The notes under the pieces were generated by a model. That model searched no databases. It worked only from the letters and a program-made list of their open reading frames with translations, and was not told the origin of the DNA. The position numbers and the translations under genes were made by a program. This document shows positions 578 to 35,881 of a DNA stretch of 64,000 nucleotides, piece after piece. The DNA comes from a virus, in the IMG/VR virus record IMGVR_UViG_3300010167_000004, positions 1 through 64,000 of that record; one strand, 5' to 3'. The number at the start of each line of letters is the position of its first letter. The stretch's first letter is position 1.

Positions 578-1717
578 TTATAAGAAATCAGCCCATGTTG
601 GCCCAGTAACATTATTCATTTTAGACCACGCTGATTGATCTTTCTTTAAGAATTTACTAATCTCATGTGTAGATGACACTAACGATTCCTCAACTGCCAT
701 GATTGTAGCATTATTCAAACTCGCAAATCGTTTTGCAATGTTCGCACGAAGATAATTTACAACTACATTCGATGGATATGTAACTAATGAATCAGGAGTC
801 CATCCCAATTCTTTAGCAACGCCGTCATCGTGATCCAACACCACGACACCCATACCTGTATAATCATTATACTTCGCACTAAGAAACTCTAAATTAGAAT
901 CACGGCCCATATAATCAAATGGGTTATATCTCTTACGAGTAAATGCCCCTAGCAAATCTTCAATGATGTATGACTCAAAATCTCCAGTAGGCGTATCACC
1001 ATTAAGGACATGCTCATAAGAAATAAATAAATAAGGATGATCTAATATAAAAGATCGTATCTCGTAACCCTCTCGTTTAATAGAATTAGTGAGGTTTACT
1101 TCCTCGGTAGATCCCCGTGTTCTGAATATATACTCATTCAACTCTGCGGCGGGGGTTTCCCCCTCTTGTACTAATTCAAACATTCCATATCTAAATATAT
1201 CATCCTGTTTCGCTGGTACTGTACTGAATATCTTATAGTCACGATTATTCTTCGTGAATGTAAGGAAGGGAGGCTCTGGTACATACTCAAGCCACACCCG
1301 CCGTGTCGGAGCATCCCAACAAAATAAATCATTACCTGATATACGGTATGTCCACGGAGAATTCATATCATTATACCCGGCTTCTTTGTATACTTTACGT
1401 GGGCTGGACAAATCCCTAGAGGCAAATACTAATATAGATTGTTTTAGCATGCTCGGTAATCGTGTCAATCGCTGATCGATTGGCATTACCACGGAATAAA
1501 ATCCTGAATCTACTTGTGATATACGCTCATAACAATATGCCCATAATTCCGTAAGCGTATTCATTATATCACGGAATGAGAATGAGTTGATAGCTTTTGC
1601 TTGCGCCAATTCCATAGCATCATAAATAATGTCTGACGCATAACATTTAAGCTGCACCTTCTGTTTCTCCCTCCCCGCCTTCTTCTGCCGGGGCTGATTG
1701 TGTAAGTGCCAATGCAC
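578..1717 (-). CDS. virion-module protein of unknown function (up to 379 aa; start probably the ATG at 1615)
   Basis: Long ORF in the late operon. The upstream 64-aa ORF ends at 1647, so the first non-overlapping ATG is MELAQAK at 1615. No motif recognised. Confidence 0.75.
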   Translation of the reverse strand: MHWHLHNQPRQKKAGREKQKVQLKCYASDIIYDAMELAQAKAINSFSFRDIMNTLTELWAYCYERISQVDSGFYSVVMPIDQRLTRLPSMLKQSILVFASRDLSSPRKVYKEAGYNDMNSPWTYRISGNDLFCWDAPTRRVWLEYVPEPPFLTFTKNNRDYKIFSTVPAKQDDIFRYGMFELVQEGETPAAELNEYIFRTRGSTEEVNLTNSIKREGYEIRSFILDHPYLFISYEHVLNGDTPTGDFESYIIEDLLGAFTRKRYNPFDYMGRDSNLEFLSAKYNDYTGMGVVVLDHDDGVAKELGWTPDSLVTYPSNVVVNYLRANIAKRFASLNNATIMAVEESLVSSTHEISKFLKKDQSAWSKMNNVTGPTWADFL

Positions 1718-1847: not shown

Positions 1848-3281
1848 CTATCGCCTACCTAATGTTAATGGAGTATGCACGGCAAACCGTCTATGACTAT
1901 CCTGCACATTACGCACAGTATTTTGAATAGTCTGATACGTACCGCCAGTTCTACCCACAAAATCGCTCATAAATTGATTTACTCCTGTTAGAAATGGAGC
2001 CTCCAGATTAACCCCTAAAACACTCGCAGTTGTTGCAATAGTAAGTCTATCCCCATTACTCGCTGCCGCTGCCGCTAGCATCAATACAATACGTTCTTGA
2101 TCAATATCTAATGCCACAGAAGCTTCTGCTAAAGCTCTTTGATAAACCGAACCTGAATTAATTTCTTTCAACATGTTCTCAACATCAACCGTACCCATAT
2201 TAAATGCAAGACGAAGCTCTTCATTGCTTACTTCTCGAAGCTTTTGAAGATCATTAGTAGCTAATGCACCATTCTGTACTACAGTATTAAGTATCTCATC
2301 TGCTTTGACTATACGATCAAGCTGCTGATAACCTTCTTTCTTACCTTGTAAAGCTAACTGTTGTGCTTGCTCCATCTTATCATGCATCTCGATATTCGGT
2401 GTCATCTGGTATATTTCTGCTGCACGACCTACCATACCCATACCGGGAATAAAATTCATAGTAGAAGCATGTTGATCTCTTTGCGCTTGTAGACGTTCTG
2501 CCATACGCTGAAAATATTCGGTACGTTGCGCAGCATCAGTCTTAGGTACAGACGCTTGATCTAATCCAGATTGATCAAGACTTGCTGATCTACCAGCGGC
2601 TCCCGTTTGTCTATATGTTATATCTCGTGAAGTAAGACCTGCATCTGAAACATCATCCCATACTCTCGCTCGGTATCCATCACCTGTTTGTTGTGGAGGT
2701 GATTGATTATTATTATTATTATTATTATTATTATTGTCATTCGTACTATTCGTATCGCTAGTATTATTAGTATTATCTCCTCTATGATAAGAAAGATCAG
2801 TAGGATCTCTTATATAAATATCAGCAATAGAAGAATTAGGAATTCCCTTTTCCCCACGAGCTTTCCTGACTCCTAATACCCCCCAAATATCTTTAGCCTC
2901 TTTAGTAAGACTAGCATACTCTTGACGAAATACTTTTAACCGATCTATTTGCTCTTGAGATAACACACTTTCAGATCCATAATCTGAAATCATATCATTT
3001 ATAGGCTTAATATCGGCTATCTTTTTATCAATCTGCTGTAAAATAAACTGATACCGTTTTACTAAATCCTCTGTCTTTTGATTTTCAGGCTTCTTTGCAT
3101 TAGCTTCAGCTACTGCCTGATTAGCCGATGACACAAAGGAATCTCTTGAAGATTGCTTTATCTGATCTATCTTTCTATCAAGTTCAGTAATTCTAGCACT
3201 ATGCTTCATCATACCTTCTGCGACTAATTTTTTACGTTCATCCTCTAATTTTTTTAGATCATTATTAAACAAATCACTCAT
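1848..3281 (-). CDS. coiled-coil virion protein with an Asn10 tract
   Basis: 477-aa ORF with SD AAGGAGG upstream. The N-terminus is K/E-rich and helical, followed by TNDN(10)QSPP. Confidence 0.8.
   Translation of the reverse strand: MSDLFNNDLKKLEDERKKLVAEGMMKHSARITELDRKIDQIKQSSRDSFVSSANQAVAEANAKKPENQKTEDLVKRYQFILQQIDKKIADIKPINDMISDYGSESVLSQEQIDRLKVFRQEYASLTKEAKDIWGVLGVRKARGEKGIPNSSIADIYIRDPTDLSYHRGDNTNNTSDTNSTNDNNNNNNNNNNQSPPQQTGDGYRARVWDDVSDAGLTSRDITYRQTGAAGRSASLDQSGLDQASVPKTDAAQRTEYFQRMAERLQAQRDQHASTMNFIPGMGMVGRAAEIYQMTPNIEMHDKMEQAQQLALQGKKEGYQQLDRIVKADEILNTVVQNGALATNDLQKLREVSNEELRLAFNMGTVDVENMLKEINSGSVYQRALAEASVALDIDQERIVLMLAAAAASNGDRLTIATTASVLGVNLEAPFLTGVNQFMSDFVGRTGGTYQTIQNTVRNVQDSHRRFAVHTPLTLGRR
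2706..2735. repeat. (ATT)10 perfect trinucleotide microsatellite, read as (AAT)10 = Asn10 on the coding strand
   Basis: Read directly: gattg + 10 x att + gtc. Confidence 0.95.
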
Positions 3282-4936
3282 ACAACAGCCTCCTTTATAG
3301 AGGCAACTTCTTGTGCCAATTTTTGTATAGCAGTATTTGATTCATCCGCTAATGCACTTACAGCACCAGCTGTCATAAGCGCAAGACGACCCGTATCTAC
3401 AGTCTTAACACCCTCTGGAGTTTCAATAATACATGCTGGATTTACTTCTTCAATATCCTGTGCCATCGGGCCGATGTGAGTTTCATTAGGATCGATGTTT
3501 GGATCTACTGCCTGTGCCTCCGGCTTATAATTATACACATAATTTCGTATATGTTTCATGTAACCATTCAACACATCATCTTTCCAAATAGATGAATGTT
3601 GAATATCGTATTTATAGGGATCGCCTCTATCGACAAGTGCATGCAAAAACTCTAATTCATGCGCACGATACGGAGGCCCTTCCGCTAAAATACCTCTTGC
3701 AACATCGTATGGATCACACCCCTCTAATTCTTTATAATCTTCATCAGACAATGTACCTGACCGTAACATTTTAGCAGCATCCCTACCATGATATACGTAC
3801 TTGATGTTCTTATCAGAACCTATCCGTCTAGGTGTATAAGATGATCTAGGATTAATCGTTTTCCAAACTTGATCTACTTCAAATCTATACTGCGTATCTA
3901 TATCCGACAATTTATTTCGCCTCGATACATCATCCAATGTCGCATCATTTTTAACTCCCTCTATCTCTAAATTACGTTTAGCATCAAGTTGAGCCATATA
4001 ATCTCTAAGGATTCTACCTTTAGCGGCAGTCTGCATTTCTGGTGCAAGACTAGATATTTGACCTAATCCTTGTTGTATTTCCCGTAATCCAAACTGTGAC
4101 TGATTACCGACACCACCCATACCTAATATACTAGACAAAACACCGGGTACTGTTCCTAATGCCCATCCGCCTATATCAGCCCATCTATTCTTACGTGTGA
4201 CTTCACTAAGTGGAGGTTCGTCATCTTCTTCATCATCCACAATAACACTAACACCACCCGATGATCCACCCGATGATCCACCCGATGATCCACCCGATGA
4301 TCCATTATTATCATCGTCAATAATAGTAAATCCTTTTTCCAATATAGACCGATTATCAGTTGGCTTACCTTCAAGCCCTATTTTACCTTTAGGCGCATCC
4401 TCAATTTTCTCAATCTGTTCTACAGTCTGTTCAGCTTCTTCCTTTTTAGTTTCAAGATCTTTCGGTAATTTACCAGCCTTAGCTAACCACATATTAACTA
4501 TAATAGCTAATTCATCATCTTTAATCGTCTTAATATCACCAAACCCATCACCTTTCTTATCTACAAATTCATTATACCACTTCTCGAACGATGAATAGTC
4601 CTGATCTTTACCCTTAGACTTCAAGATCATCTTTACTCTTGAGTCAGAATCCTTGTCAGGATCAACATTAAGATCAGGTGTCGCTGGCATATCAGAAGCC
4701 GCAATAGTCTCCTCACGCATTTTATCTATAGCATTAAACGCTTTATTACGCTCCTTATCTTCTGACCCCATTAATTTCGCCAGTTGTATAGCATCGTCCA
4801 TACCCGCACTCATACTAGGATTCTTATTATTAGGCCCAGCCCCACCTATATTAGCAAGTTTAGTAGCAGCAGATCCTACACGTCCAGCAATGTCCATACC
4901 TGTTTTTACTGCAAGTAAAGCTGCTAATAAACTCAT
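3278..4936 (-). CDS. virion or fibre-like protein with a (GGSS)4 linker and a C-terminal intramolecular-chaperone (peptidase S74-like) domain
   Basis: 552-aa ORF with SD GAGGAG. It has GSDKNIKYV followed by HIGPMAQDIEEVNPACIIETPEGVKTVDTGRLALMTAGAVSAL, which resembles the S74 autocleaving chaperone of tail spikes and fibres. Confidence 0.7.
   Translation of the reverse strand: MSLLAALLAVKTGMDIAGRVGSAATKLANIGGAGPNNKNPSMSAGMDDAIQLAKLMGSEDKERNKAFNAIDKMREETIAASDMPATPDLNVDPDKDSDSRVKMILKSKGKDQDYSSFEKWYNEFVDKKGDGFGDIKTIKDDELAIIVNMWLAKAGKLPKDLETKKEEAEQTVEQIEKIEDAPKGKIGLEGKPTDNRSILEKGFTIIDDDNNGSSGGSSGGSSGGSSGGVSVIVDDEEDDEPPLSEVTRKNRWADIGGWALGTVPGVLSSILGMGGVGNQSQFGLREIQQGLGQISSLAPEMQTAAKGRILRDYMAQLDAKRNLEIEGVKNDATLDDVSRRNKLSDIDTQYRFEVDQVWKTINPRSSYTPRRIGSDKNIKYVYHGRDAAKMLRSGTLSDEDYKELEGCDPYDVARGILAEGPPYRAHELEFLHALVDRGDPYKYDIQHSSIWKDDVLNGYMKHIRNYVYNYKPEAQAVDPNIDPNETHIGPMAQDIEEVNPACIIETPEGVKTVDTGRLALMTAGAVSALADESNTAIQKLAQEVASIKEAVV
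4254..4301. repeat. 4 perfect tandem copies of a 12-bp unit (CCACCCGATGAT) encoding (GGSS)n
   Basis: Units at 4254, 4266, 4278 and 4290, read directly. Confidence 0.95.
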
Positions 4937-6552: not shown

Positions 6553-6825
6553 CTATGGTAAAATAAACGGAGGATACGGGACAAGACTTTTTGCATGAGC
6601 ATTAAGATTCTCACCCTCTAAATCCCGCCGCCGTCTCCTAACTGGCTGTGATATATCCCTTGTACGTTTCTTAAAAGGATACCTCTCAAATTCATCATCA
6701 AGTATTATTACCTGTTGTTGATCCTGTAAAGGAATATCACTCATCAGCCATTCCTCAATACGTGCTATATTTACATTTATGATATTCACCATTTCAGGAT
6801 CAATATCATTCGCCTCAAACCTCAT
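6553..6825 (-). CDS. small hypothetical protein
   Basis: 90-aa ORF with SD GAGGAA. Its start overlaps the giant ORF stop (TAATG). Confidence 0.65.
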   Translation of the reverse strand: MRFEANDIDPEMVNIINVNIARIEEWLMSDIPLQDQQQVIILDDEFERYPFKKRTRDISQPVRRRRRDLEGENLNAHAKSLVPYPPFILP

Positions 6826-9800
6826 TACATTTCCTCAATGTTCTGCACATCAGGACGTGTTACCAACGGAGCTGTCCTCGCCTCACTAATTACAGACACA
6901 TGCACTTTGAGTTGTCGAATGGACACAATTCCGTCTGACCAAATAAACAACTTCTCACTATTTCCTGCACCGTTGCGACCATTGAATCGGAAGTTGTAAT
7001 ATCCGCTTGACCCACTACGCCTGTCAAATAAATCTTCTTTAAGATACAATCGTGTAACTTCACTTTGTTTGAATCCTCCGACTGTTTGCAATTCAGACGC
7101 AAGATTAACTGTAACATAACGATCCCTCAATATCTTCTTCATTAGATCAGTTAAAGCAAAACTAATCTCCCATTCAAATTGACATTCTTTATTTTCATCC
7201 ACACCTAAGAAGGATGTCGCTAACTTAAACGGCTCAATATAATAACCATTGATAGGATTAACCCTACTGTTACCCCAATCATAATCCCTCTCCTCCCAAA
7301 AATCATTTAACTTATTATTCTCTGGCTTGAACCAATGTGTGAAGAATTTACCTGTACGCTCATTCATAGGTATACCATCATTCGGCCCGTCTAATGGATG
7401 TTCACCCTCACGGAACATATTCTCTTGCAATACAAAGCGATTGATTTGTCCACGTCTCGGCCCTTGTAGTGCAAGCCCTGACGCTAAACCATAGTATTTG
7501 AAATCCGCAGAAATCTTATCATTGTTAGAATTAATATATGGAAGTGACATTACATTCTTATTCGGAGGATATACCTGTCCAATGAAATCTTGATCAACAC
7601 GTATTATAGTAAGTCTATTTTCCATTATCGTTCTAAACGCCACTTCCTGTGACACAAAGTCCCATGTACCTGACACTACATCTTTGAATCTAAAGGCCGT
7701 ATTCACTTTCTCTAATGTATCTGATCCAGTAAATGTATAGAACGCATGAATAGTCGGAGAATAGAACCATGCAATCTTCGGAGTAGAGCCAAGATATGTC
7801 AAGCCTAATGTAGCCACAACATCTTGTAACGATATGGTTCCCATCGAAGCATTTACCCGTGAAATATATTCTGCATTAGCTCTATACGCCTGACCGTAAA
7901 TCACAAAGTCATGCGCTATCGGCTTTTTAGCACGTGGGTTTGTTGTACGCAAATCTGTTGTTAATGATGTAATACCATCAATAACATGCGCTTTATACGT
8001 AGCAATTCCCTGAACAGCGGCCGGGAGTATTGCCACATTATTATGTACTATCGGAATAGAGTATCTATAACCTTGCAAGTTTTCAGGAGATCGCCCCATA
8101 TTACCAAGATACCGTGAATATATCTGTACCTTATGTAAATATGTATCTAATTCAGGAACCGCCGTAAACTTCCCAAAGTATGATGTGGGAGGAGGAAGGG
8201 CTGCCGTCTTAAAGGCGTCCTGTGCAACATGACTAAATACAGAGTTTTGGACTTCTGCGTCTACACCAACCTCACCAGTTAATTTAGCAATCCTATTTGT
8301 GTAACCATCAAACCCATGATACGTCCCTAACTTTTTGATCGTGTTATACCCTGTAGTATTAAACAATACTGTATCACCAGAGAATACTCTTGGGAATAAT
8401 GTATCATTACTGATCTCATTCGTAACTTCCACACACGTGTATGTTGAGGCAACTAACGGTACTTCATTTTTAATTACCACATTACTCGGCGCACCATCCA
8501 ATATCAATGTATCCCGAACACTCACACCAAATATCTCACCAGCAATGGCAGAATAAAATAATTGCGCCGATGGATATACACAAAAGTCAAATAACCCCGG
8601 CTCACTGAATACTGGATAACCCGTATCTATTTTGACAGGTAAATCCAGTAACGAATCTTCGGCAAAGAAGCTATCTACACCTTGTACTAGGCTGCAATTA
8701 TCATAAAACTCTGTACGTTTTGTCTGTGTCGCAAACTTTAATATACGCTTCTCATAATTTCGTGTAATTGGAAAACCTTCATCCTTATACAATTCAACCA
8801 TCTCTGGTTGTGTGACAGGCATTAATTCAGTTTGATTAATTATATGTGAATGAATATCCTGTGTCGGATATGAATACACCATATGCTTAGAACCAACATT
8901 AACATTCGGCTGATACTCCATTTTAACATCAAATGTATTTACACCCTGCACGGGCTGTACTCCAACTAGACCAGTATTATTTATGTCAAGCGGCCCGACA
9001 AATGGAATTGGTATCGGCGGTATGCGGATTCCTAATTGAGAACCACCACCCTGCGCACCATGTGAATTACTATAACTACCAGATATACGGCTGCCCTGCA
9101 CAAATTGAATCTGTGTAAATCCGGGGCCAGCGAACACATTTTGATTTGCAGAAATACTATATACACCTGACAAACCAAGCCGAGATTTAGCAACAGACAA
9201 CGCACGTGGCTGGCTATGCATACCAGAATTAGAAGCATTAAACATTGCCATAATACCTTCGGCAATTTTATCTCTATAATACTTTCTATTCATAGAGATA
9301 CGACCTAACTTTGCTGATTCTTTTTCCTCTTGTGAATCCCACTCTGGCTCTTGCCATACTTTCTTCCATGCATCTTTTCGTCTCTGCGATTTCTCCTCTT
9401 GCGTTTCTCCTTCTCGCACACCATTCCAACGATCTTTCCTATTACTACTACTGTCATTAACTATGCGATCCATAACATTACCTAATTTATCAGCAGCTAT
9501 ACTTGTCGCTGTAGCCGTATTCGCCATAAGAGCCAACGCCACACGATACAATGTATTATTAATCATACCAGCTACACGTTCTGCCTTCTGTTCATCCTCA
9601 TAATAATCTTCATCCTCGGTCATCATATTAACAGACCAATAATTCAATACTGCCGCACTCGTTGTCCTCGCCCACACCCAAGCAGTAGCAAGGAATACCA
9701 CAAGAGGATTCGGGAAAATGAATTCACCTTTAACTCTGGTGTCAATCCCTGATCCTTTTGCACTTTCACTCGCTTTATATCTGCTAAACCGTAACGGAAG

Positions 9801-12800
9801 ATTTTTTAATCGGAATTGATTTCCGTCAAACTTTGCACCAACACATATACCACCATTAAACACATCATCAACAAAACATAATGACTGACCAGAAATAAAC
9901 GCACGCTTTTTCTGTGTCATAGCAGCACTTAACTCTGGCTTATCCCGAAGCGACACCCTCATTCCCTGCCGCATATTCATAGCATACGCTGGTATAGCAC
10001 CACCCGTAACCGTCCCATCGATCCCGACACACCCATAACCATTAAATACAAATGGACGAGATTTTAATACCAATGTCCATTGATGAACACCACGGTCATA
10101 TCTAATCCCAAGCAATACTGTGCCTTCATACAATGTCGATGTCACTTCAATGTTGTTCACAAAGAATGATGGAACAGGAGGCTGACCAATAAATGATAAT
10201 GTACTACTGGAAAATCCATTACGTTCAACTGTAGTAAACTTAAATGTTTTCTCATTCCATGTCGGACTAAACTGATTAGTAATTTGTTCTTCAAATAATA
10301 AATCAGTAGTCCGGGTAGATACATAACGTATTTTAATACCAGTATCAATCGGTTCAATTACATAAAGATATGGCAATTCCTCCACCGCACACGTAACACC
10401 ATATTTGAACCCATCAGATCTACTACCGAAAATTTCTTCCCTTGGGCGTGATTTTATTTGCTCCCAATAACCACCATCTTTAGACGATTTCGGTTTTCTT
10501 TCACCGTCTGTATCAATATAACTTAAATCAGTATTTCGTTCCAATAGAATTAAACTATCTGCGGTAAGTTGTAAGATATGATCCTGATCGATATACCAAA
10601 AGTTTTCTGTCGCCGCATCACTATCAAACTGCGTTGTCAATACTGCAAAATCATCTTTCGGCGATGACAGTGATAATGCCTTTTTATCACCTGTGCGGAG
10701 ATCATGCGCTAGGCATCGAATATAAGCCTCGCCATCGAACTCTACTGTCACACTAGAAGTTTTCGGCTCCCTTAATTCTTCCTCTTTGTCATACTCTGTA
10801 CGGGGCATGTATTCAAATTGAACATCAACATCTGTATCTGTTGCTATAAGCCCAATATATTTTATATCCTCACTCGCCCTCTGATATATCCCTTTCGGCA
10901 AAAAGGTAATAACGCCTTTATCAGAATCCCTAAATAGGAATCGTACAACACTCCCATTTTCAGAAACATTATAAGGACTCTTATTATATTCCTCGTCCAA
11001 CTGTAGCTGTAATTCCTCACTTGACTCATCATCCTCGTCTATTTCTGCATTACGAACATCGTCAATTAAATCTAATTCCTCGACACTGACAGGGTACTCA
11101 CCGACACTACGAACATAATCAGTGGTATTGCCAATTTCAATTTCATCACTCTCTTGCTTATAGGCATACACGCCATTCAATAACTGAATAATAAACTCAT
11201 CATCCCGGCTATCTTTGAACACCATATCCATTACATCTGGACTACCATTTGCAGAAATAAATTCATAATCACTTACCATTCCAGATGGCGGCAACATAAA
11301 CATTCTACGCAATTTAATAAATCGTTCTGTAGCATCACTCAACCCCGGCAGAATCCACCGTGCCGGACGCTCCACGCTCTCACGAGTAACTACTCCGATA
11401 TTACCCATTTGCATATCGAATGAATATCCACCAGCACGATACGTAACCTCGGTACGTCCCGGCCTACCTAATGTTGCCTGATTAATTGTTGTAAGATATG
11501 TAGCAATTTCAGATGGCGACACACCAGAGAAATTAAAGAACATGTCCTGTTCATGATCATCTAGTGCATATTGCACTGACTGACCGGGCAGCATTGGGAT
11601 TAACGTACCACCAGCATTAGTAAGCGTATTTAGGAAATCCCACGGTTGAAATACTGCTTCGACACCAACCTCCTGTACTCGTCCTAATGGTATCTGCATT
11701 ATATTTTTATTCGATGATCTAAACGCAATCTCATCAATATATAAAAACTTACGTGGAATAAAATCGAATGTAATACCAAGCTCTTGTCCTGATGATTTTT
11801 GTTGTCGCACTTGAGTAAAACTTACATTAATAATACCCCCAGTAAGATCTTCATTCATTTCTATATTTTTTAGCTCCATTAAAGAGCTTTCAGATGTGAC
11901 ATCTAATGACCAATCTCCACTCTCTACTTCATGGCATCTTAACGTAAACCCAACACTCTCATTCCCCTTGATAGCTAAATTTACAATAGCCTTATGCGCA
12001 TAAGACACTCCGTAAAATGGTATACCGCTACCCCAACTGATACTCGCCCAATGAGTAAATTGCACATTTTGCAAACCTTGTATTTTTTGAAGGCTTATTT
12101 GTTTATACACAGCAGTATCAAGCTCTATACCACTACCATAAGCAATAAATTGAGAGTTATTAGGATCTTGGATAGTCTCTGCCGCAGTACCTACTTGATT
12201 AAATAAATAATTAGGGCCACCCTCAAAAGAAACTCTATTCCCCCAATAAGATCCAGCATTATCAAGACCCCAACTGATTTGATCAGGACGATACCACATA
12301 TTTTCAGGATACTTAAATGTATAATCAAAACGTAATAACTTATCTTCTTCAATATAATTATTAGATGTAAAATAAGGCTCGTCATTATCATTCATTGTTT
12401 CAGAAAATATATCCTTAAATAAATCATCCACATTAAACCGAAAATTATACCAATGGTATAGATCGATACTCTGTAAATCTAAGCCCTCATTACCATAATC
12501 ATTCTCAAAGTATTTATAGAAACTACCCTCCCCAATATCCTCATAAATAAGACCACTATTCACAAAGTTTCTACTATCTTCTTCCTCCTCTATAAATCCA
12601 TCATTCTTACTATCATCGTCTACCCTCCAACAATCCCACGGAAGTGCCGCAGTAATAGTAATAACCGTGCTTGCTGTGGTAACGCCTGTCGCTGTTGCTA
12701 ATCGAGGAAACCATTGGGAACCTGACACAAATAAACCATTATCAGGAGGACTCCCCGGATCTAGCTGTTCACCATTTAGTACTAATCTAATTCTACCATA

Positions 12801-14990
12801 ATTAGTAATAGAATATGGATCTGTACGATTTATTGTAGCAGCCCTCACTCTACGTGTAAGATAACCAGTTTTAGGTGTTATAGTCACCCCATCATCTTCT
12901 ATTTTTTCCCACGTATAAGCACGCATCTGATAAATATATACATCGTCACCACTAACTTCTAACTTAAAATGAAAGTCAGGATCTATAGATCCATCATTCA
13001 CACTATCCATATTCTCAATAAGAGAACTCTTAAATATGAACTCTTTACCAGTTATCGGTTGAAAATCTGTAGGCCCTTGGGAACCACGTTGATATGAAGC
13101 TCCCGGCACAAATGCACATCTATTCCAAATAGCCGAATCTCCAGAACCCCACTGTATATCCGCCGTTGTACCTTTATAGTAGGGAAATATACCATTAAAG
13201 ATGACCGCCACTTCCCTATTCTTCATAGGATAAACGAAACCATCTTTTTCGTATGGAGGAGAGTCATCATCTGAAATAGAAGCCGTAGTAAATCTAAATG
13301 TATAATTTGGACAATAATATATAGGCCATAATGTTTTTGCAACAGAGGTAATACTTGTTTTCAAACAAATGCTATTTGTAGATTTAGGATAATAGCCACT
13401 CTCAAATGCACTTAATCTAACATCATCCCACCCCCAATGGAAATTATTACCAGATATACCTTGTTCTGGAACTAACATATCATCAAAAATCTTAACAACC
13501 TTCAAACTGTCTCGTCCGTATTTATCAATGTCTTTAATCTCGCATCGTGAATCAGAACGAACAGACATTCTGTAAGCTCTACCATTACTAAGATAATTTT
13601 GATTCCACGCATAAAATGGAGTATTTATACCAGAATCTTCATTCACAGCATTTTGAGTAATTACAACTTTTTGAATAAACCCATCAATCCCATTAAACGA
13701 TAAATTATCTAATGCAGTAACAATCATAAAAGATGATGAAAACTGACCCGATAAATGTAATACGCCATCCAAATATGGCTGATTATCTATAGTGGGCCAA
13801 TCTTGTCGTCCAGCTTCATAAGCACCTAACACTACACTCGGCTGTGGAAGGCTTAATGCTTTTGCACGATCAGTTAAAGCGGGGGTAACAGCTAATCTAT
13901 ACGGCCTTCGTGCTAAAGGATTAACCTGTGTAATTGCTTCTTTAACACTTACCATTAAATCTACTTGTGTAGATGACGGATTCTGCACAGTAATTTCAAC
14001 AGACTCATTTACTGTATCCACAACATCTGGATTAACTACATAGCCCAAAGGATCTAAACCTAAATGATTACTTAGTATAGGATCAGTATGATCATCTTGT
14101 AATTGTATATTACTTTCGCCATCTGCAAAAGTCAATGTAGTAATACCATTCTCTTTCTCTACTCTTGAAATACTTAAATCATTCGCAACATTATGCTCAA
14201 TCAATAATGGATATACCATTACTAAATTATCTTCATCTTTTAATTTCCGAAGCACCGTAGCCGTAATAACATCTTGCCCAAAATCCATGAAAGCTTCATA
14301 ATCATTAGGAACATATGCGGGCCAGCTATCATTCCCATCTTCTTGATATTCCTCCATCAACCGAGTATATGGATCTACTAACAAACGGAACATATAATCT
14401 TGAGGATTATCAGGATTTATAGTAGTATTGCCCCATTTATATGTACTGCCCGTAATAATATATTTCTCATACATCTCCCCCGGTACAGGGTTTTCAGATG
14501 GGTAATATGTACTCGCCGTTGGAGCCAATACATCTACAAGATTTGTAGAATCAGGCAATCGTTCAACCATAGGATCAACTACATCACCTACTTTAGTCTG
14601 ATCCTCTAATATATCACCAAAACCAGCAGTAAATTCAAGATTCTTTAAGTACTGCGTCCACGGAAACGACACATGCAGAGCGTATGGTACATCCTCATAG
14701 AACCAAAAATTGCGTATAATCTCATCTTCCAAGATCTGCGGTTGCGGAAATGGATCTAATTCATCAGAATTATACTTAATTACATGTGTATATAACACTC
14801 GATAATCATATCTATACCAATCAGCAAAGATTCCATCACCTTCATATTTAATTGAATTAGAAAGAAACCCACTGACAGGAGCTTGTGGATTATATGAAAA
14901 GGTTGGACGCTGTACGTTGACAATCGCATCTTCTAATGATGGTTCAAGAGGAGAATTTATCGGTATGTCATATACATCTGCATTATCCAT
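6825..14990 (-). CDS. giant virion-module protein (2721 aa), function unassigned
   Basis: Uninterrupted 8.2-kb ORF with SD GGAAGG. Its start overlaps the stop of the putative portal gene. There is a central hydrophobic/Gly-rich segment. No catalytic motif recognised. Confidence 0.9.
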   Translation of the reverse strand: MDNADVYDIPINSPLEPSLEDAIVNVQRPTFSYNPQAPVSGFLSNSIKYEGDGIFADWYRYDYRVLYTHVIKYNSDELDPFPQPQILEDEIIRNFWFYEDVPYALHVSFPWTQYLKNLEFTAGFGDILEDQTKVGDVVDPMVERLPDSTNLVDVLAPTASTYYPSENPVPGEMYEKYIITGSTYKWGNTTINPDNPQDYMFRLLVDPYTRLMEEYQEDGNDSWPAYVPNDYEAFMDFGQDVITATVLRKLKDEDNLVMVYPLLIEHNVANDLSISRVEKENGITTLTFADGESNIQLQDDHTDPILSNHLGLDPLGYVVNPDVVDTVNESVEITVQNPSSTQVDLMVSVKEAITQVNPLARRPYRLAVTPALTDRAKALSLPQPSVVLGAYEAGRQDWPTIDNQPYLDGVLHLSGQFSSSFMIVTALDNLSFNGIDGFIQKVVITQNAVNEDSGINTPFYAWNQNYLSNGRAYRMSVRSDSRCEIKDIDKYGRDSLKVVKIFDDMLVPEQGISGNNFHWGWDDVRLSAFESGYYPKSTNSICLKTSITSVAKTLWPIYYCPNYTFRFTTASISDDDSPPYEKDGFVYPMKNREVAVIFNGIFPYYKGTTADIQWGSGDSAIWNRCAFVPGASYQRGSQGPTDFQPITGKEFIFKSSLIENMDSVNDGSIDPDFHFKLEVSGDDVYIYQMRAYTWEKIEDDGVTITPKTGYLTRRVRAATINRTDPYSITNYGRIRLVLNGEQLDPGSPPDNGLFVSGSQWFPRLATATGVTTASTVITITAALPWDCWRVDDDSKNDGFIEEEEDSRNFVNSGLIYEDIGEGSFYKYFENDYGNEGLDLQSIDLYHWYNFRFNVDDLFKDIFSETMNDNDEPYFTSNNYIEEDKLLRFDYTFKYPENMWYRPDQISWGLDNAGSYWGNRVSFEGGPNYLFNQVGTAAETIQDPNNSQFIAYGSGIELDTAVYKQISLQKIQGLQNVQFTHWASISWGSGIPFYGVSYAHKAIVNLAIKGNESVGFTLRCHEVESGDWSLDVTSESSLMELKNIEMNEDLTGGIINVSFTQVRQQKSSGQELGITFDFIPRKFLYIDEIAFRSSNKNIMQIPLGRVQEVGVEAVFQPWDFLNTLTNAGGTLIPMLPGQSVQYALDDHEQDMFFNFSGVSPSEIATYLTTINQATLGRPGRTEVTYRAGGYSFDMQMGNIGVVTRESVERPARWILPGLSDATERFIKLRRMFMLPPSGMVSDYEFISANGSPDVMDMVFKDSRDDEFIIQLLNGVYAYKQESDEIEIGNTTDYVRSVGEYPVSVEELDLIDDVRNAEIDEDDESSEELQLQLDEEYNKSPYNVSENGSVVRFLFRDSDKGVITFLPKGIYQRASEDIKYIGLIATDTDVDVQFEYMPRTEYDKEEELREPKTSSVTVEFDGEAYIRCLAHDLRTGDKKALSLSSPKDDFAVLTTQFDSDAATENFWYIDQDHILQLTADSLILLERNTDLSYIDTDGERKPKSSKDGGYWEQIKSRPREEIFGSRSDGFKYGVTCAVEELPYLYVIEPIDTGIKIRYVSTRTTDLLFEEQITNQFSPTWNEKTFKFTTVERNGFSSSTLSFIGQPPVPSFFVNNIEVTSTLYEGTVLLGIRYDRGVHQWTLVLKSRPFVFNGYGCVGIDGTVTGGAIPAYAMNMRQGMRVSLRDKPELSAAMTQKKRAFISGQSLCFVDDVFNGGICVGAKFDGNQFRLKNLPLRFSRYKASESAKGSGIDTRVKGEFIFPNPLVVFLATAWVWARTTSAAVLNYWSVNMMTEDEDYYEDEQKAERVAGMINNTLYRVALALMANTATATSIAADKLGNVMDRIVNDSSSNRKDRWNGVREGETQEEKSQRRKDAWKKVWQEPEWDSQEEKESAKLGRISMNRKYYRDKIAEGIMAMFNASNSGMHSQPRALSVAKSRLGLSGVYSISANQNVFAGPGFTQIQFVQGSRISGSYSNSHGAQGGGSQLGIRIPPIPIPFVGPLDINNTGLVGVQPVQGVNTFDVKMEYQPNVNVGSKHMVYSYPTQDIHSHIINQTELMPVTQPEMVELYKDEGFPITRNYEKRILKFATQTKRTEFYDNCSLVQGVDSFFAEDSLLDLPVKIDTGYPVFSEPGLFDFCVYPSAQLFYSAIAGEIFGVSVRDTLILDGAPSNVVIKNEVPLVASTYTCVEVTNEISNDTLFPRVFSGDTVLFNTTGYNTIKKLGTYHGFDGYTNRIAKLTGEVGVDAEVQNSVFSHVAQDAFKTAALPPPTSYFGKFTAVPELDTYLHKVQIYSRYLGNMGRSPENLQGYRYSIPIVHNNVAILPAAVQGIATYKAHVIDGITSLTTDLRTTNPRAKKPIAHDFVIYGQAYRANAEYISRVNASMGTISLQDVVATLGLTYLGSTPKIAWFYSPTIHAFYTFTGSDTLEKVNTAFRFKDVVSGTWDFVSQEVAFRTIMENRLTIIRVDQDFIGQVYPPNKNVMSLPYINSNNDKISADFKYYGLASGLALQGPRRGQINRFVLQENMFREGEHPLDGPNDGIPMNERTGKFFTHWFKPENNKLNDFWEERDYDWGNSRVNPINGYYIEPFKLATSFLGVDENKECQFEWEISFALTDLMKKILRDRYVTVNLASELQTVGGFKQSEVTRLYLKEDLFDRRSGSSGYYNFRFNGRNGAGNSEKLFIWSDGIVSIRQLKVHVSVISEARTAPLVTRPDVQNIEEM

Positions 14991-16741
14991 TACATACCTT
15001 CCACAATCGGGGCTTCCTCACCTCCACCTTCTTCTGGCGGCGGCAATGATTCCATCGGAGGCAACTCCCCCTCTGCCATAGCTGGCTGCGCCAACATTAT
15101 ATTACCTAATTTCATATCCTCAACATACAACATCATCAGGAAATCAATAAGCCGCTTCACTTCTGCACAATCTTCGGAGCCGCCAACAGACATTATCTGC
15201 ACCAATCTCAATGAAGCAACCTGACGGAGTAAATTCGGCTCGATAGTAAAGTTTAGATCACAATAACATGCCTCTCCCATCAACACACCAGCAACAAACC
15301 GCTCCACTTGCACCCGTTGATAGTTTAATTCCTCTGGTTCTGCCCCTGCGCCACCAGTAGCGTCATTATCATGGACAGGAAGTACATCAATGTATGCCTC
15401 ATCAATCAATTTATGCACTTTCTCCCATCCACTCCCCTCATCTATCACCGCTTTATACTGAATATAGTATAAAATCACCTCTTGTATATGATGAGCGAGC
15501 GAAGCCAACTGACTTTGGAACCCGGAGTCATTATATTGGTTCAAAGCAACCATCTGCGCCGCAGATCTCATGCTTTCTAGCTCCAAAGATATGTTCTGTA
15601 CCCCTGCCAACTCAAACATTTGACCCTTTAATGCCTCAACTTCCGCACTTAACTGCGGATCTAACGGTGTTGGCTGCAATACAGTCATCAATTCTGCGGG
15701 ATCTCGCACCGTATCAAGGAATAAACACTCCCCTGCGGCGTTCCCAATCTGCTTTACAACCACCTCTGACTCACGATTAAACACTGGAACCGGGCCTTTA
15801 TAGTTGACTAATAACTGTGTTTTCTTCGCTAAAAGCTTGTTTAATGCCCGTTGTAAGGGGTATAATAAGTCAAAGAGTGACGATACAGTGGTCTTTCTGA
15901 CCCCTAAATCCCACGAAAATGACGATAAAAGCACATGATCAAACGGATAATCGGTCTCCGGCCCCATATCTGACCCTATCGCAACGTACTTTTTATGCCT
16001 AAAACAGTCAATATACAGCCTCAAATCCACTCTTTGCTTCGTATTACCAAGGTTTTTAACCTTCTCGTCATTAAAACCATGTATGTACGGCCCTAATGCG
16101 CTCACTGGAAACGACCAATCACGTATCAAAACACGTTTTAGCTTGCCGTCTGCGAACTCTGACTCATATACACCCAACTCCCAATCGGTTATTTTGCGTA
16201 TTTCATGCGACCACGGGTCGATAAACACATGTGAGAACCCTAAAATAGCCGCATCATGGAATGATTCAACCGCAATTCTATTCAATTTATGCTTTCTAAC
16301 CGTTGCTTTCAACACTCTTTCTATCTCATCACGATAAATTAGGTACAAAGCTGTCGGAACATCAGCAGTTAACTTATAATCGAAGGTAGTATTACCTACT
16401 CTTGACACAACCAAATCAATAATCCCCTTCAAATAGTTAGATGACAGCCCGGTTCCTGTATCTGTACGCTCTTGATCCTGTAATGTGAATGGTACAGTGT
16501 TATATGATGATCTTGACCAGTCATAATCTTTCAATGATGGAAACAATTTATTATAAAATGCACATATTTTTAGATATTCCTTCGTATATTTATCTTCAAT
16601 CAACGATGTTAGGCGATAGAAGTCTGATCTAATGCCTTCTGGAACCATCATTGACTCATAATGATCCTCTTGACGCACAGGATATTGTGTCGGTTGATAA
16701 AAACCTGTGATTTTATTCTTCTCAAAATTAATTTTAGCCAT
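14990..16741 (-). CDS. putative portal protein (assigned by size and position only)
   Basis: 583-aa ORF downstream of terL in the head module, with SD AGGTGG and an acidic Pro/Gly/Glu C-terminal tail. No diagnostic motif recognised. Confidence 0.4.
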   Translation of the reverse strand: MAKINFEKNKITGFYQPTQYPVRQEDHYESMMVPEGIRSDFYRLTSLIEDKYTKEYLKICAFYNKLFPSLKDYDWSRSSYNTVPFTLQDQERTDTGTGLSSNYLKGIIDLVVSRVGNTTFDYKLTADVPTALYLIYRDEIERVLKATVRKHKLNRIAVESFHDAAILGFSHVFIDPWSHEIRKITDWELGVYESEFADGKLKRVLIRDWSFPVSALGPYIHGFNDEKVKNLGNTKQRVDLRLYIDCFRHKKYVAIGSDMGPETDYPFDHVLLSSFSWDLGVRKTTVSSLFDLLYPLQRALNKLLAKKTQLLVNYKGPVPVFNRESEVVVKQIGNAAGECLFLDTVRDPAELMTVLQPTPLDPQLSAEVEALKGQMFELAGVQNISLELESMRSAAQMVALNQYNDSGFQSQLASLAHHIQEVILYYIQYKAVIDEGSGWEKVHKLIDEAYIDVLPVHDNDATGGAGAEPEELNYQRVQVERFVAGVLMGEACYCDLNFTIEPNLLRQVASLRLVQIMSVGGSEDCAEVKRLIDFLMMLYVEDMKLGNIMLAQPAMAEGELPPMESLPPPEEGGGEEAPIVEGM

Positions 16742-17822
16742 TACGCACCACCTGACTCACACCTTTTGAATGAGGCGTCAATGTCTGATTGATAACTTTC
16801 ATATCTTCATCGCTCACTCCACCAATTTTAGCATTACTCATAAACTTTTTCTTATTTTCTTTAAGCAAAGCTGGCATAGCCTCAAGTGTACGATCTCTTA
16901 CATCTCGTTGAATAACTTTAGTAGGAGAATACTCATCCAAAAATGCCTCTAAATAAGCTTCTAACCTCTCTGGTTCAATACTCCTCAAAGCATCTTCAAC
17001 TAATAATTTTTCCCGTATCTCATTATATACTGAATACTGTGGGCCTCGCCTAAGCAACTCACGTATTTGACTTCTTTTACGTTGCTGTTTAGTTGCCTCA
17101 TCTAACAACTCTACAGGAGCGTCATAAAGGCTCACCGAACTAGGATCTCTATCTTTTACATGAGCCTTCATTTCTTCTCTCTGACTCTCTGGTATATGCG
17201 CTCTCCGCATAATGCTATCTTCAACTTCTTTCTTAGTAACATTTACATTATTATTTTCTGCCCAATCATATACTGCTGCAATAGCCTTCCAATAATTCTC
17301 ATTAGACGAATTACTTAAGCTATGTAATTTCCGCATCATATCCAACTTTTCTTTAGGTACATTTCCTCTATATGTACGCTTAGATCTATCAGATATTTTC
17401 TGTTTTAATCTATCCTGACCTTCAAACGGATCAATAGATTCTTCTTGTGGTTCCATCTCATTAAGATACACATGCCAATCACCAGCAAGACCTTCATCAT
17501 CCGTCCGTTTACCTAATACCTTATGAATCCTAACAGGATAGCGTTTAGTATCCCTACTATTACCCGTAAGATAATCCCATAACTCTGACTGACTTTCAGG
17601 ATCTATCTTCGCAGCAGAAAACCCCGGCTGACTTCCAAAACTACTTGACTCTAAATGAAAATCTCCGGGACGCTCTGCGTCAAACTGCTCTCGCTGACCT
17701 ACCCTAGATATTTGCCGCTCTCGCTCTCTTGTAGATCTAGCTGGAGTAAAGAATGGGATTAGTACTTTCTCACCAGTAGGAGTTTCTTTTACACGAAACC
17801 CTTTGACAAAACTATCCATCAC
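16734..17822 (-). CDS. hypothetical head-module protein
   Basis: 362-aa ORF with SD AAGGAA, charged and helical. It overlaps the next gene by 8 nt. Confidence 0.75.
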   Translation of the reverse strand: MMDSFVKGFRVKETPTGEKVLIPFFTPARSTRERERQISRVGQREQFDAERPGDFHLESSSFGSQPGFSAAKIDPESQSELWDYLTGNSRDTKRYPVRIHKVLGKRTDDEGLAGDWHVYLNEMEPQEESIDPFEGQDRLKQKISDRSKRTYRGNVPKEKLDMMRKLHSLSNSSNENYWKAIAAVYDWAENNNVNVTKKEVEDSIMRRAHIPESQREEMKAHVKDRDPSSVSLYDAPVELLDEATKQQRKRSQIRELLRRGPQYSVYNEIREKLLVEDALRSIEPERLEAYLEAFLDEYSPTKVIQRDVRDRTLEAMPALLKENKKKFMSNAKIGGVSDEDMKVINQTLTPHSKGVSQVVRNG

Positions 17823-19747: not shown

Positions 19748-20285
19748 CTGATTCTCCTTGCATAACGCCATCTAAGATAACTTTTATATCCTCGTCACTA
19801 AGCACTATATCTTTCACTCCTATATCACTAGGAGGATCAGGCTCTAGTACGATCTCATTCTTACCAACTTCTCTAAGTTGTGGTACATCTTCCATCGGCG
19901 CACCCTTAATACCTTTGAGTAAATCCTCATACTCCTGATCTCGTTGAAGCTGTATACGCTCACGTAACAATCTATCCACTAGATCGGGATTCTTAAAAAA
20001 CTTCATACGCAATTCAGGATTCTGCATTTTTTCCACAGCATCTTTAAGCTGACGATGATAAGCATTATACTGTTCCTCATCTATCTTGCTCAAATCCTTA
20101 TTATCCTTTAACGAATACGTATCGATGCCTTTAACTTTCGCCTTAGCGTACTGCTTATCTACTTCTTGTTCCTTGGCCTCTTTCGCCAACTTATCTGTTA
20201 AACTATCAATAGTAGCAATCTTGATACGCCCCGGCTCATACATACCCGTAACATCGTTTTTTTCAAACGGGATCTTAACTGCCAT
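19737..20285 (-). CDS. hypothetical protein; N-terminus is similar to that of the putative portal
   Basis: 182-aa ORF with SD GGAGG. MAVKIPFEKNDVTGMYEP compares with portal MAKINFEKNKITGFYQP. Confidence 0.75.
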   Translation of the reverse strand: MAVKIPFEKNDVTGMYEPGRIKIATIDSLTDKLAKEAKEQEVDKQYAKAKVKGIDTYSLKDNKDLSKIDEEQYNAYHRQLKDAVEKMQNPELRMKFFKNPDLVDRLLRERIQLQRDQEYEDLLKGIKGAPMEDVPQLREVGKNEIVLEPDPPSDIGVKDIVLSDEDIKVILDGVMQGESDEE

Positions 20286-24779: not shown

Positions 24780-24815
24780 GCATGGATTGATCCTGTTGTC
24801 AATCCATGCTATAAT
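24780..24815 (+). promoter_or_regulatory. promoter-operator cassette: TTGATC-17-TGcTATAAT with an 11-bp inverted repeat GCATGGATTGA/TCAATCCATGC across it
   Basis: -35 at 24787-24792, -10 at 24810-24815 and IR arms at 24780-24790 and 24799-24809. Confidence 0.65.
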
Positions 24816-24833
24816 ATCATAAGGGAGTATACA

Positions 24834-25028
24834 ATGAAGTATAGCATGAATGACAGGTTAGCATTTTTTGAATGGTTGAATGGCATAGTAAAACCAGAGT
24901 ATAAATCATCTCGGTGTTATTATGGATTCTGGAACGAAGCTATTGAAGCTGATCAGAACGGTCGGGGCTATGAAGTAGCTTCCATGTATACGGTACTCAA
25001 TAGACCGTATTCATATCGGTTATCATAA
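24834..25028 (+). CDS. hypothetical early protein
   Basis: 64 aa, SD AAGGGAG. Confidence 0.7.
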   Translation: MKYSMNDRLAFFEWLNGIVKPEYKSSRCYYGFWNEAIEADQNGRGYEVASMYTVLNRPYSYRLS

Positions 25029-25040
25029 GGAAGGTATGAA

Positions 25041-25238
25041 ATGATATATAATAAAATAGTAAAAGCCGATAATCGGGTAGATCATAGGATTATTGCCTAT
25101 ATGAGCGATACAAGACTATACACTATTTACTCTGTAAGGACATTGAAAACTAATAGAGCGGTACATAAGATTGACTATAGGCTAGAGCTTATCAATAAGG
25201 CCATAGAGCAGGGATTATTCACGGAGGTCAAAAAATGA
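25041..25238 (+). CDS. hypothetical early protein
   Basis: 65 aa, SD AAGGAAGG. Confidence 0.7.
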   Translation: MIYNKIVKADNRVDHRIIAYMSDTRLYTIYSVRTLKTNRAVHKIDYRLELINKAIEQGLFTEVKK

Positions 25239-25450
25239 CGAATAAGAGGACTAGTACAATGGAGCTTGGGTATTCCATGCTATACGGAAATAGGGTATAC
25301 ATATACAATAGAGATCGGGAAGTAGTGGGAAGGGGATTCCTCTATTGTATCAATAGCGTTTTATATACGGTCTTTAATGGTACTGTATACATGCTAACTG
25401 ATAGCGGTCTACTTCCGCTATATTCGGATAAGTACCGATACGGAGTATAG
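25235..25450 (+). CDS. hypothetical early protein
   Basis: 71 aa, ATGA start/stop overlap, SD GGAGGT. Confidence 0.7.
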   Translation: MTNKRTSTMELGYSMLYGNRVYIYNRDREVVGRGFLYCINSVLYTVFNGTVYMLTDSGLLPLYSDKYRYGV

Positions 25451-25480
25451 AGTAAGGATAGATATGGCATAGAGGAATCT

Positions 25481-25516
25481 TGCCGATAAACCATTAAGTT
25501 TTATAGTTTATCGGCA
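25481..25516 (+). terminator. 11-bp-stem hairpin (TGCCGATAAAC/GTTTATCGGCA) after the gene stop; possible terminator
   Basis: Perfect inverted repeat with a 14-nt loop followed by TTGT. There is no long T-run. Confidence 0.4.
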
Positions 25517-25567
25517 TTGTATAGATCATAGGTAGTTTACCTATAAACAATTTTACGGGGGTATGAA

Positions 25568-25942
25568 ATGAGAGTAATAACACGTGAAGCTGTTCACGCA
25601 TTGATCAGAGGACATAAGTATTACAACGATAATACTTATGTAAGGGTATTCTCTAACGGCAATAGGGAATTATGCTTGCATGATAATAGAATCGTATGGT
25701 ATGATAAGGGTAAATACTACTTGTCATTATGTGGCTGGAATACGAATACAACACGGGATCGGTTGAATGGATTCCTATTCACTATCGGGGCGCATGCTAA
25801 AATAGTTACCCGGAAGTATGTTCCATATATTCAGTACAATGACGGAAGGAAGGTACAGATTAGCGGTAGAGCTACATTGTCATTCAATGATGATGATGAT
25901 GAGCTTATAGTGGCTTCATTTGATCCAAATTATAGGGGGTAA
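25568..25942 (+). CDS. hypothetical early protein
   Basis: 124 aa, SD GGGGGTAT. Confidence 0.75.
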   Translation: MRVITREAVHALIRGHKYYNDNTYVRVFSNGNRELCLHDNRIVWYDKGKYYLSLCGWNTNTTRDRLNGFLFTIGAHAKIVTRKYVPYIQYNDGRKVQISGRATLSFNDDDDELIVASFDPNYRG

Positions 25943-35789: not shown

Positions 35790-35881
35790 GGGCTTGAGCC
35801 TATAGTATATGGTTGTACGGTTGATGGTGGCTTCATACCTCCTTCCATCAACAGGTGTGGGTTCGATTCCCACTAGGCCCC
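35790..35881 (+). ncRNA. tRNA-like element: acceptor stem + canonical T-arm, but a non-canonical core with a long hairpin
   Basis: GGGCTTG pairs with TAGGCCC (2 G-T pairs). T-arm is GTGGG-TTCGATT-CCCAC at 35857-35873. The 60 nt in between hold an 8-bp stem GTTGATGG/CCATCAAC (35820-35852). I could not draw a D arm or a normal anticodon arm. Confidence 0.45.

Follow-up and report, generated by a model that had tools for sequence, protein, structure and literature searches.

A giant protein predicted to be an enlarged tail nozzle in an uncultured phage lineage

The stretch of viral DNA analysed here, 64,000 nucleotides in length (positions 1 to 64,000 of the IMG/VR record IMGVR_UViG_3300010167_000004, hereafter the window), contains a minus-strand open reading frame (ORF) coding for a giant protein of 2721 residues which, judging from the modelled structure of its C-terminal region, is probably the nozzle at the tail of a short-tailed phage (a protein also named hub, or "tail tubular protein B"), carrying an elaboration of about 1900 residues. 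Within this reading it is most likely that a nozzle protein has grown to 1500–3300 residues in a large uncultured lineage. The podovirus nozzle or hub is a known kind of protein and an enlarged version of it is known from crassviruses; what would be new is the scale (1500–3334 residues), an extension that precedes the propeller, a second propeller-like module, the presence of transmembrane-like (TM-like) helices and the definition by this protein of an uncharacterised lineage. The positions of the modules and genes discussed below are collected in Table 1.

Predicted structure of the C-terminal region

Prediction of residues 1936–2721 with AlphaFold2 (AF2) yields an almost wholly β model with a mean predicted local distance difference test score (pLDDT) of 78.9 and a predicted template modelling score of 0.67, the residues of the C-terminal module (C module) lying mostly between 80 and 93. 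Four long β-strands, conserved in 16–21 relatives, open the model, the Gly/Pro-rich loop GAQGGGSQLGIRIPPIPIPFVG (residues 1978–1999) forming the tip of a hairpin. They are followed in the C module by some seven to eight four-stranded blades (~2134–2475) and then by an eight-stranded β-sandwich (~2588–2702). We describe this region with fair confidence, on the strength of the model, as long strands, a roughly seven-bladed propeller and a C-terminal sandwich; this layout agrees with the fold by which the nozzle proteins T7 gp12 and P22 gp10 are recognised, a central propeller of about seven blades together with a jelly-roll platform. A membrane β-barrel built from the long strands was also considered and rejected, both faces of the strands being hydrophilic.

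Comparison of the model with the PDB using Foldseek ranks the hexameric nozzle or hub proteins of at least eight podoviruses, cyanopodoviruses among them, best, with E-values of 3e-6 to 5e-4 and probabilities of 0.92–1.00: the tails of HRP29 (8es4_E) and E1004 (9vvr), T7 gp12 (8e4g_P, 7ey7_s, 7boy_s and 9jyz_P), and the proteins of P-SCSP1u (8i4m_A), Pa223 (9nwi_Y), SU10 (7z47_G) and Pan3 (9vyg_M). These targets are mostly 772–912 residues long, the query having 786, and most alignments extend over 800–1040 columns; Pa223, Pan3 and 7boy_s are aligned over 615–664 columns only, and the hubs of Pa223 and Pan3 have 445–512 residues. The same search against BFVD returned 72 matches at E≤1e-3, the best at 6e-9. 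All named proteins among the top 50 are annotated "P22 Gp10 DNA-stabilising", "Tail tubular protein B" or crAss "Stabilization protein", save for one protein from a phage, whose label reads "Lactonase, 7-bladed beta propeller".

Several observations weigh against the nozzle assignment. The model is that of a monomer and was built from an alignment of 39 sequences (38 relatives). The Foldseek matches have low template modelling scores (TM-scores, 0.15–0.32) and root-mean-square deviations of 15–40 Å, and the non-phage β-propellers Sevenless and LRP6 come close to the nozzles by E-value, so that part of the signal is generic propeller similarity. The middle module (M module) gives weak and generic WD40 or propeller matches only (best E 5e-3), and the specific structural assignment is confined to residues 1936–2721, about 70% of the protein (1–1935) lying outside it. 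On the level of sequence, a profile search of PDB sequences remained empty even at E≤10, and neither the sequence families of gp12 and gp10 (e.g. PF25675, under which Pfam lists homologues of T7 gp12) nor any further model in Pfam, PHROGs or NCBIfam matches the giant or 17 of its relatives. Moreover, hhalign comparison of the C module with T7 gp12, taken either as a single sequence or as a 24-sequence alignment, gave probabilities of 1–10%, which are not significant. The helical sequence between the M and C modules (1741–1935) is conserved in 4–7 close relatives only, and the most hydrophobic 19-residue segment in the window's protein (1763–1781) has a mean Kyte-Doolittle (KD) value of 1.42, below the usual threshold of 1.6 for transmembrane segments. 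As none of the genes could be recognised as that of an adaptor, portal or capsid, the term podovirus is itself inferred.

The best of the hhalign matches is a motif of 41 columns (E.L.IWSD...L.TQ.DV; E 3e-3, probability 10%) pairing residues 2677–2719 of the giant with residues 409–449 of T7 gp12. It is worth recording that T7 gp12 has in its middle part a stretch, "SEELLIWSDEAQ...NLTTQFDVQD", to which the near-invariant C-terminal motif of the family, E[RK]L.IWSD...PL.TQ.DV, is similar; this likeness may be left over from a homology in which the domain order has been permuted, or it may be due to chance.

The same data have to be weighed under another reading, according to which the giant is a tail-associated appendage or receptor-binding hub outside the channel, its nozzle likeness reflecting a shared propeller fold and the true nozzle being encoded by another gene. 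The low TM-scores and the near-equal E-values of non-phage propellers would fit such a protein, as would the lack of sequence-level homology to nozzle families, a hypervariable insert of the sort typical of host-recognition proteins (see below) and the presence nearby of genes for proteins of 521, 477 and 379 residues that are without assignment. We nevertheless consider it unlikely. Indeed, the top phage matches in both the PDB and BFVD are nozzles or hubs from many unrelated podoviruses that agree with the ~790-residue region in length and are aligned along the whole of it; no part of the protein is better conserved than the C module, which is strictly C-terminal (all 5151 pairs alignable, with a median identity of 44%), unlike receptor-binding tips; and separate fibre genes exist in the window, coding for a 552-residue protein with an S74 domain and for a 1640-residue protein. 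Likeness to tail or hub families, which the sequence-only reading made earlier of this DNA had proposed to look for in all segments of the protein, was found for the C-terminal ~29% only.

A single gene with a fixed modular layout in an uncultured family

The giant ORF runs uninterrupted from its ATG over 2721 codons to a TAA stop, occupies 12.8% of the window and codes for an acidic protein in which aromatic residues, Ser/Thr, Asn and Gly are abundant. At its 5' end the TAA of the preceding 583-residue gene and the ATG of the giant share one base at 14990 (TAATG), and in the same way the TAA of the giant and the ATG of the following 90-residue gene share one base at 6825. The sequence-only reading had described an ORF of this length and position filling 13% of the window and translationally coupled by TAATG-type overlaps on both sides; all of this agrees with our analysis, which adds the minus strand that had been omitted. 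It had further found no recognisable motif, and this too is confirmed: the protein has zero matches in Pfam, PHROGs, NCBIfam and PDB sequences (phmmer), and none of the 50,697 deposited phage genomes, N4-like phages and Schitoviridae included, was matched by tblastn. No RNA polymerase (RNAP), metal-binding, P-loop or zinc motif is conserved in the giant, self-BLAST and comparison with the rest of the window revealed neither internal repeats nor paralogous domains, and the literature searches made returned no description of the lineage or of the protein. When 17 diverse giants of the family (~48,000 residues) were compared with Pfam and PHROGs, zero matches were obtained.

A word-indexed protein search recovered one relative only, P0002, the family appearing only with an exhaustive HMMER search. 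P0002 has 2251 residues and is 58% identical to the giant over its C-terminal 63%, its N-terminus being conserved too; the gene is intact in three independent assemblies (ENA, JGI, Logan) and lies on a contig of ~65 kb with the same gene order as the window. Between the two genes synonymous sites are saturated, whereas the nonsynonymous divergence (dN) amounts to 0.16–0.46 in the conserved parts, far below the synonymous divergence (dS). The ORF is thus real, single and under purifying selection. That it arose by chance, or that several genes were joined by sequencing error or, as the sequence-only reading had raised for consideration, by mis-assembly, has nothing in its favour beyond the length of the ORF and the missing annotation; assembly error or gene fusion is excluded by the intact gene of P0002 in all three assemblies together with a dN that stays well under dS throughout the conserved parts, and the presence of the same N- and C-terminal modules in a family in which 123 of 150 representatives reach at least 2000 residues is equally at variance with it, so that its probability is negligible.

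The exhaustive search, made with residues 1601–2721, identified homologues in 192 representative clusters at E≤1e-3 and in 157 at E≤1e-30; many of the counts given here rest on the 150 relatives listed among these 192 clusters. Their median length is 2454 residues with a maximum of 3334, and in every listed relative the matched region is the extreme C-terminus. For the 58 members with a listed source, 56 come from metagenome collections only and two (P0012 and P0083) from NCBI records; the few with a name go by "hypothetical protein", and Pfam domains are absent. A renewed search with the family profile returned only family members, none of them with a Pfam domain or a name. The contigs that carry them reach 56–74 kb. 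Scanning of IMG/VR gave the P0002 contig as the only match, and of two DNA motifs used to scan 185,579 species genomes the first found none and the second three contigs of metagenome-assembled genomes (MAGs), namely one of 61.7 kb in a Lachnospiraceae bin from water-deer rectum, one of 61.3 kb in an unclassified bacterium and a fragment assigned to Treponema; as evidence for the host of the lineage these bins are weak. The TerL protein of the window likewise found no tblastn match at E≤1e-5 in the 50,697 deposited phage genomes. With family members coming from metagenomes, and both TerL and the giant unmatched in the phage collection, the whole lineage is uncultured and remote from deposited phages.

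Alignment of the family reveals a fixed collinear layout comprising an N-terminal module (N module), a variable insert, the M module, a linker and the C module. The consensus of the N module is M..Q.F.IPLDSPLD...DMLV...P.F..N.Q...G..L..S.RYE.DGWFAGW, and a hidden Markov model places it at positions 1–11 in 172 of the 181 members of at least 1400 residues. The M module could be aligned, over residues ~1400–1690, in 115–129 of the 150 relatives. An AF2 model of residues 1201–1960 has a mean pLDDT of 65 and is confident (85–95) over ~1460–1740 only, where it is β-rich. Comparison of M with C and of M with gp12 detected nothing, and there is thus no evidence of internal duplication. Every one of the 150 listed relatives has the C module, which forms the extreme C-terminus throughout and contains two near-invariant motifs, [DE]C.[FY]EW..[TN]F and, at its very end, the E[RK]L.IWSD motif already mentioned.

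The insert between the N and M modules behaves very differently from the C module. In the giant only residues ~80–360 and ~1050–1400 of it can be aligned with the closest relatives, and across the family its length varies from 64 to 1797 residues (median 1098). Whereas all 5151 pairs of C modules align end to end, only 388 of the 5151 pairs of inserts can be aligned, with a median identity of 26% over 36% of the shorter insert. In P0147, a complete member of 1522 residues with the same gene neighbourhood, the insert is nearly absent, and P0092 (1490 residues) is similar. The existence of such short members indicates that the core of the protein comprises ~1500 residues and that the ~1320-residue insert of the giant is lineage-specific.

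The linker between M and C, ~530 residues in length, cannot be aligned across subclades. In the giant, AF2 predicts with low confidence an Ala/Thr-rich helix (1813–1855) and charged helices (1864–1921) in addition to the hydrophobic helix listed in Table 1. The property of interest appears when the family is considered: in 85 of 111 members the most hydrophobic 19-residue segment of the whole protein falls in this linker, which makes up 21% of the length. These maxima have a median of 1.74. Of 155 segments with a KD value of at least 1.6, 113 are located inside the linker (nominal binomial p = 4e-35, the sequences not being independent). From these sequence data, the hydrophobic stretch of the giant is a weak representative of a property that is conserved family-wide. 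The sequence-only reading had drawn attention to this stretch. The peptides that it quoted are present, at 1766–1782, 1819–1837 and 1978–1999, the feature extending over ~1760–2000 and not over ~1650–1900 as indicated then; the hydrophobicity that it emphasised is modest in the window's protein itself and has its substance at the level of the family. Given that the hydrophobic maximum falls in the same linker in so many relatives, a membrane-active element inside this tail protein is plausible on sequence grounds.

A further reading is that the giant is an internal, ejected virion protein analogous to T7 gp16 or N4 gp50, possibly a virion RNAP, which would be packaged in the head and then expelled to build the trans-envelope channel or initiate transcription. 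Its size is comparable with that of the N4 virion RNAP (PMC13434306), TM-like helices are enriched in the linker family-wide, no phage RNAP was recognised among the scanned ORFs of the window, and 70% of the giant is without assignment. On the other hand, the single DxDxD motif (1385–1389) is not conserved in the closest relative, and the sole site resembling R..K...YG (2353–2366) has its lysine at the wrong spacing and a proline where the helix should be, and its arginine is not conserved in P0002. No RNAP or transglycosylase family of Pfam matches the giant or the 17 relatives; tblastn found no match in Schitoviridae or any other phage; the conserved parts that could be modelled are all-β propellers and sandwiches and not helical ejection or polymerase folds; and what matches best in structure are nozzle proteins, which are external parts of the tail. 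An ejected protein is therefore quite improbable. Of what the sequence-only reading had suggested, the virion RNAP finds no counterpart in the data (neither a conserved DxDxD, as in the double-psi β-barrel of crAss-like virion RNAPs, nor the catalytic motifs T/DxxGR, A, B (Rx3Kx7YG) and C of the T7-like single-subunit RNAPs of N4-like phages, nor an RNAP Pfam domain, nor an N4-like tblastn match). An internal protein as the main identity is at odds with the all-β, nozzle-like C-terminal ~790 residues, while the membrane-inserting component of that suggestion survives as a plausible element. The traits of T7 gp16-type proteins are likewise divided: an SLT or lysozyme domain is missing and the conserved modules are all-β, yet the linker is enriched in TM-like helices. 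A tape-measure protein was also examined and rejected, the giant being predicted as mostly β except for residues 1762–1921 and no tape-measure, tube or sheath family being found in the operon.

If the giant is a tail nozzle, six copies (~1.8 MDa) would by analogy form the distal tail channel below the portal and adaptor, and loops of the propeller could gate the DNA as in T7 gp12. The N-terminal ~70 residues might pack against the C-terminal sandwich and complete an adaptor-binding platform, comparable to the N-terminal 45 residues of gp12; everything between N and C would then be an insertion, and the universal conservation of both extreme termini would be explained. The hypervariable insert of 64–1797 residues would serve as a surface decoration for host interaction, and the TM-like helices of the linker may be kept inside the tail lumen or close to it until a trigger frees them to breach or line the host membrane. 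T7, P22 and N4 split among several proteins the three jobs of gated nozzle, hypervariable host-recognition platform and membrane-penetrating or channel element. Their union in one polypeptide, making it a self-contained injector that dispenses with a head-stored ejectosome, is a tentative idea that we hold to be rather doubtful.

Genome context

Table 1. Location of the giant ORF, its modules and other features in the window
Feature	Coordinates	Strand	Description
Giant ORF	6825..14990	-	2721 aa, 307 kDa, isoelectric point 4.7; predicted giant tail nozzle/hub protein
N module	14751..14990	-	residues 1–80, conserved ~70 aa
Lineage-variable insert	10791..14750	-	residues ~81–1400; acidic, rich in aromatic residues and Ser/Thr, many indels
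M module	9771..10790	-	residues ~1401–1740, ~300 aa; β-propeller-like
Helical part of M–C linker	9186..9770	-	residues 1741–1935; low-confidence AF2 helices, pLDDT 40–55
Hydrophobic helix in linker	9648–9707	-	residues 1762–1781
Four long β-strands	8700..9185	-	residues ~1958–2097, 22–32 residues each, hydrophilic (AF2, DSSP)
C module	6828..8699	-	residues 2098–2721, ~620 aa; nozzle/hub-like core
TerL	20275..22128	-	617 aa; Terminase_6N 2e-7, phrog_979; near start of structural operon
Putative portal	14990..16741	-	583 aa; by position after TerL
362-aa ORF	16734..17822	-	weak match to a PHROG of unknown function
Downstream gene	6553..6825	-	90 aa; shares 45% identity with its positional counterpart in L002 (93 aa)
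Tail fibre	3278..4936	-	552 aa; C-terminal Peptidase_S74 (PF13884, 2.8e-6) and tail-fibre PHROGs
379-aa gene	578..1717	-	70% conserved in relative; one capsid candidate
1640-aa ORF	57098..62020	-	weak PHROG matches: tail fibre and two families of unknown function; none in Pfam or NCBIfam
Gly_rich_2 paralogue	55027..56175	-	382 aa; PF21722, 6e-8
Gly_rich_2 paralogue	54018..55040	-	340 aa; PF21722, 6e-3
KTSC-domain protein	62949..63824	-	PF13619
tRNA-SeC	35796..35881	+	anticodon TCA (ARAGORN)
SNF2 helicase	38778..40700	+	plus-strand block
DUF5906/VapE primase	43103..45844	+	plus-strand block
PolA	48603..50405	+	plus-strand block

The giant lies within a minus-strand operon in which a ParB-like protein of 196 residues is followed by TerL, six small ORFs, proteins of 362 and 583 residues and the giant itself, and after it by proteins of 90 and 521 residues, the 552-residue S74 tail fibre and proteins of 477 and 379 residues. 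The 583-residue protein is 70% identical in the related genome L002 and 42–46% identical in distant genomes of the family, and is always located between TerL and the giant. A label of portal, which the sequence-only reading had put on this gene, fits its position but was recovered by no tool: searches of Pfam, PHROGs, NCBIfam and the PDB (profiles of 2 and of 4 sequences), and hhalign against T7 gp8, gave no match. In L002, L011 and L012, too, an equivalent of the S74-type fibre is encoded further downstream than the giant, and the order TerL, ~550-residue protein, giant, S74 tail fibre is kept in the window and in L002, L005, L006 and L011; in all family genomes that were examined the giant lies between the pair of TerL and putative portal and the fibre genes. 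This synteny provides the tail-module context in which gp12/gp10 nozzles are encoded, the portal being designated by position only. Among the ~20 structural ORFs no match to capsid, portal, adaptor or tube families was obtained in Pfam, PHROGs or NCBIfam, and by its sequences the whole virion module is that of an uncharacterised lineage.

Some further features of the genome are recorded here for completeness. The window covers 64.0 kb of a contig of 65.9 kb and is therefore nearly the whole genome. The 379-residue protein, the capsid candidate of Table 1, gave nothing when tested for a capsid assignment. The 362-residue ORF is missing from the closest relative, in which the slot is taken by a 150-residue gene, and looks like a lineage-specific insertion within the syntenic block. 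A second late block at 53–64 kb encodes a fibre-like protein of 1640 residues, probably a long fibre or receptor-binding protein, and two adjacent paralogues with Gly_rich_2 domains. The KTSC domain, unusual for a block of virion genes, is found at the same relative place in the relative (L001/L002, ~24796..25606). The sign of the GC skew changes at ~22–24 kb and ~52–54 kb, which are exactly the two strand-switch points separating the late genes (minus strand) from the early and replication block (plus strand). The only tRNA of the window is situated in the latter block and would, as a tRNA of suppressor type, read UGA. Genome-wide recoding of TGA was considered and is unsupported: translation of TGA as sense neither merges nor extends genes sensibly, and TGA ends 29 of the 87 long ORFs.

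Comparison with known tail proteins

Should the nozzle assignment be correct, it would provide a function for the largest gene of a widespread "dark" lineage, comprising at least 192 protein clusters and contigs of ~56–74 kb, and the giant would be the largest nozzle or hub homologue known, with ~1.8 MDa per hexamer in the present case and ~2.2 MDa for members of 3334 residues. The N and C modules would be good markers to find and classify the lineage in metagenomes, and the hypervariable insert is a candidate determinant of host range. The question is also raised whether a trans-envelope conduit can be built from the tail tip itself instead of from head-stored ejection proteins. With N4 gp50 and T7 gp16, which are of the latter type, the giant shares its size, its encoding in the structural operon of a phage of ~65–75 kb and a possible membrane-active segment; it differs in having no RNAP or transglycosylase motifs or domains and in the β-rich propellers predicted for it.

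For a membrane-active element in a tail protein, the distal tail protein gp9 of phi29 offers a functional analogy. It is a hexamer in which hydrophobic L-loops located in the tube leave it on genome release and penetrate the membrane as a barrel of hydrophobic helices (PMC6542822). The linker helices of the family could act alike, but this is an analogy only: the fold is different, no phi29 knob is found among the Foldseek matches of the giant, and the helix of the window's protein is only weakly hydrophobic.

The closest parallels to the giant are T7 gp12 and P22 gp10, to which its last ~790 residues are similar in the predicted succession of a strand sheet, a propeller of about seven blades and a sandwich. 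T7 gp12 consists of a seven-bladed propeller with a jelly-roll fibre dock and a platform, three strands of the platform being contributed by the N-terminal 45 residues (PMC6702177). It has 794 residues, compared with 786 in the modelled part of the giant, and is encoded in a tail-module context as well; by analogy with its platform, the conserved extreme N-terminus of the giant could complete a C-terminal platform (PMC6702177). However, sequence homology to gp12 or gp10 is not detectable, both lack the ~1900 extra residues of the giant, among them the second module with a propeller-like fold, the hypervariable insert and the helices of TM-like character, and the giant is encoded directly after the putative portal gene and not after capsid and adaptor genes.

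An enlarged nozzle has its precedent in the muzzle protein gp44 of PhiCrAss001. This protein is an enlarged nozzle homologue (PMC10172136) that forms a hexamer of ~1 MDa at the tail tip and is proposed to be a gatekeeper, and it consists of a ring-joining domain like that of the T7 nozzle, a seven-bladed propeller and large lineage-specific domains. The giant would resemble gp44 as an enlarged nozzle, and crAss "stabilization proteins" are among its BFVD matches. The two proteins differ in the manner of enlargement, gp44 being expanded by Ig and "crass-fold" domains inside the blades of the propeller, whereas the enlargement of the giant precedes the propeller. They share no sequence similarity, the hexamer of the giant would be larger at ~1.8 MDa, and the consulted passages of the published account note no TM-like helices in gp44, in contrast to the linker helices of the giant's family. 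Thus, if the giant is indeed a tail nozzle, it would extend the precedent set by the crAss muzzle for elaborated tail tips in podoviruses.

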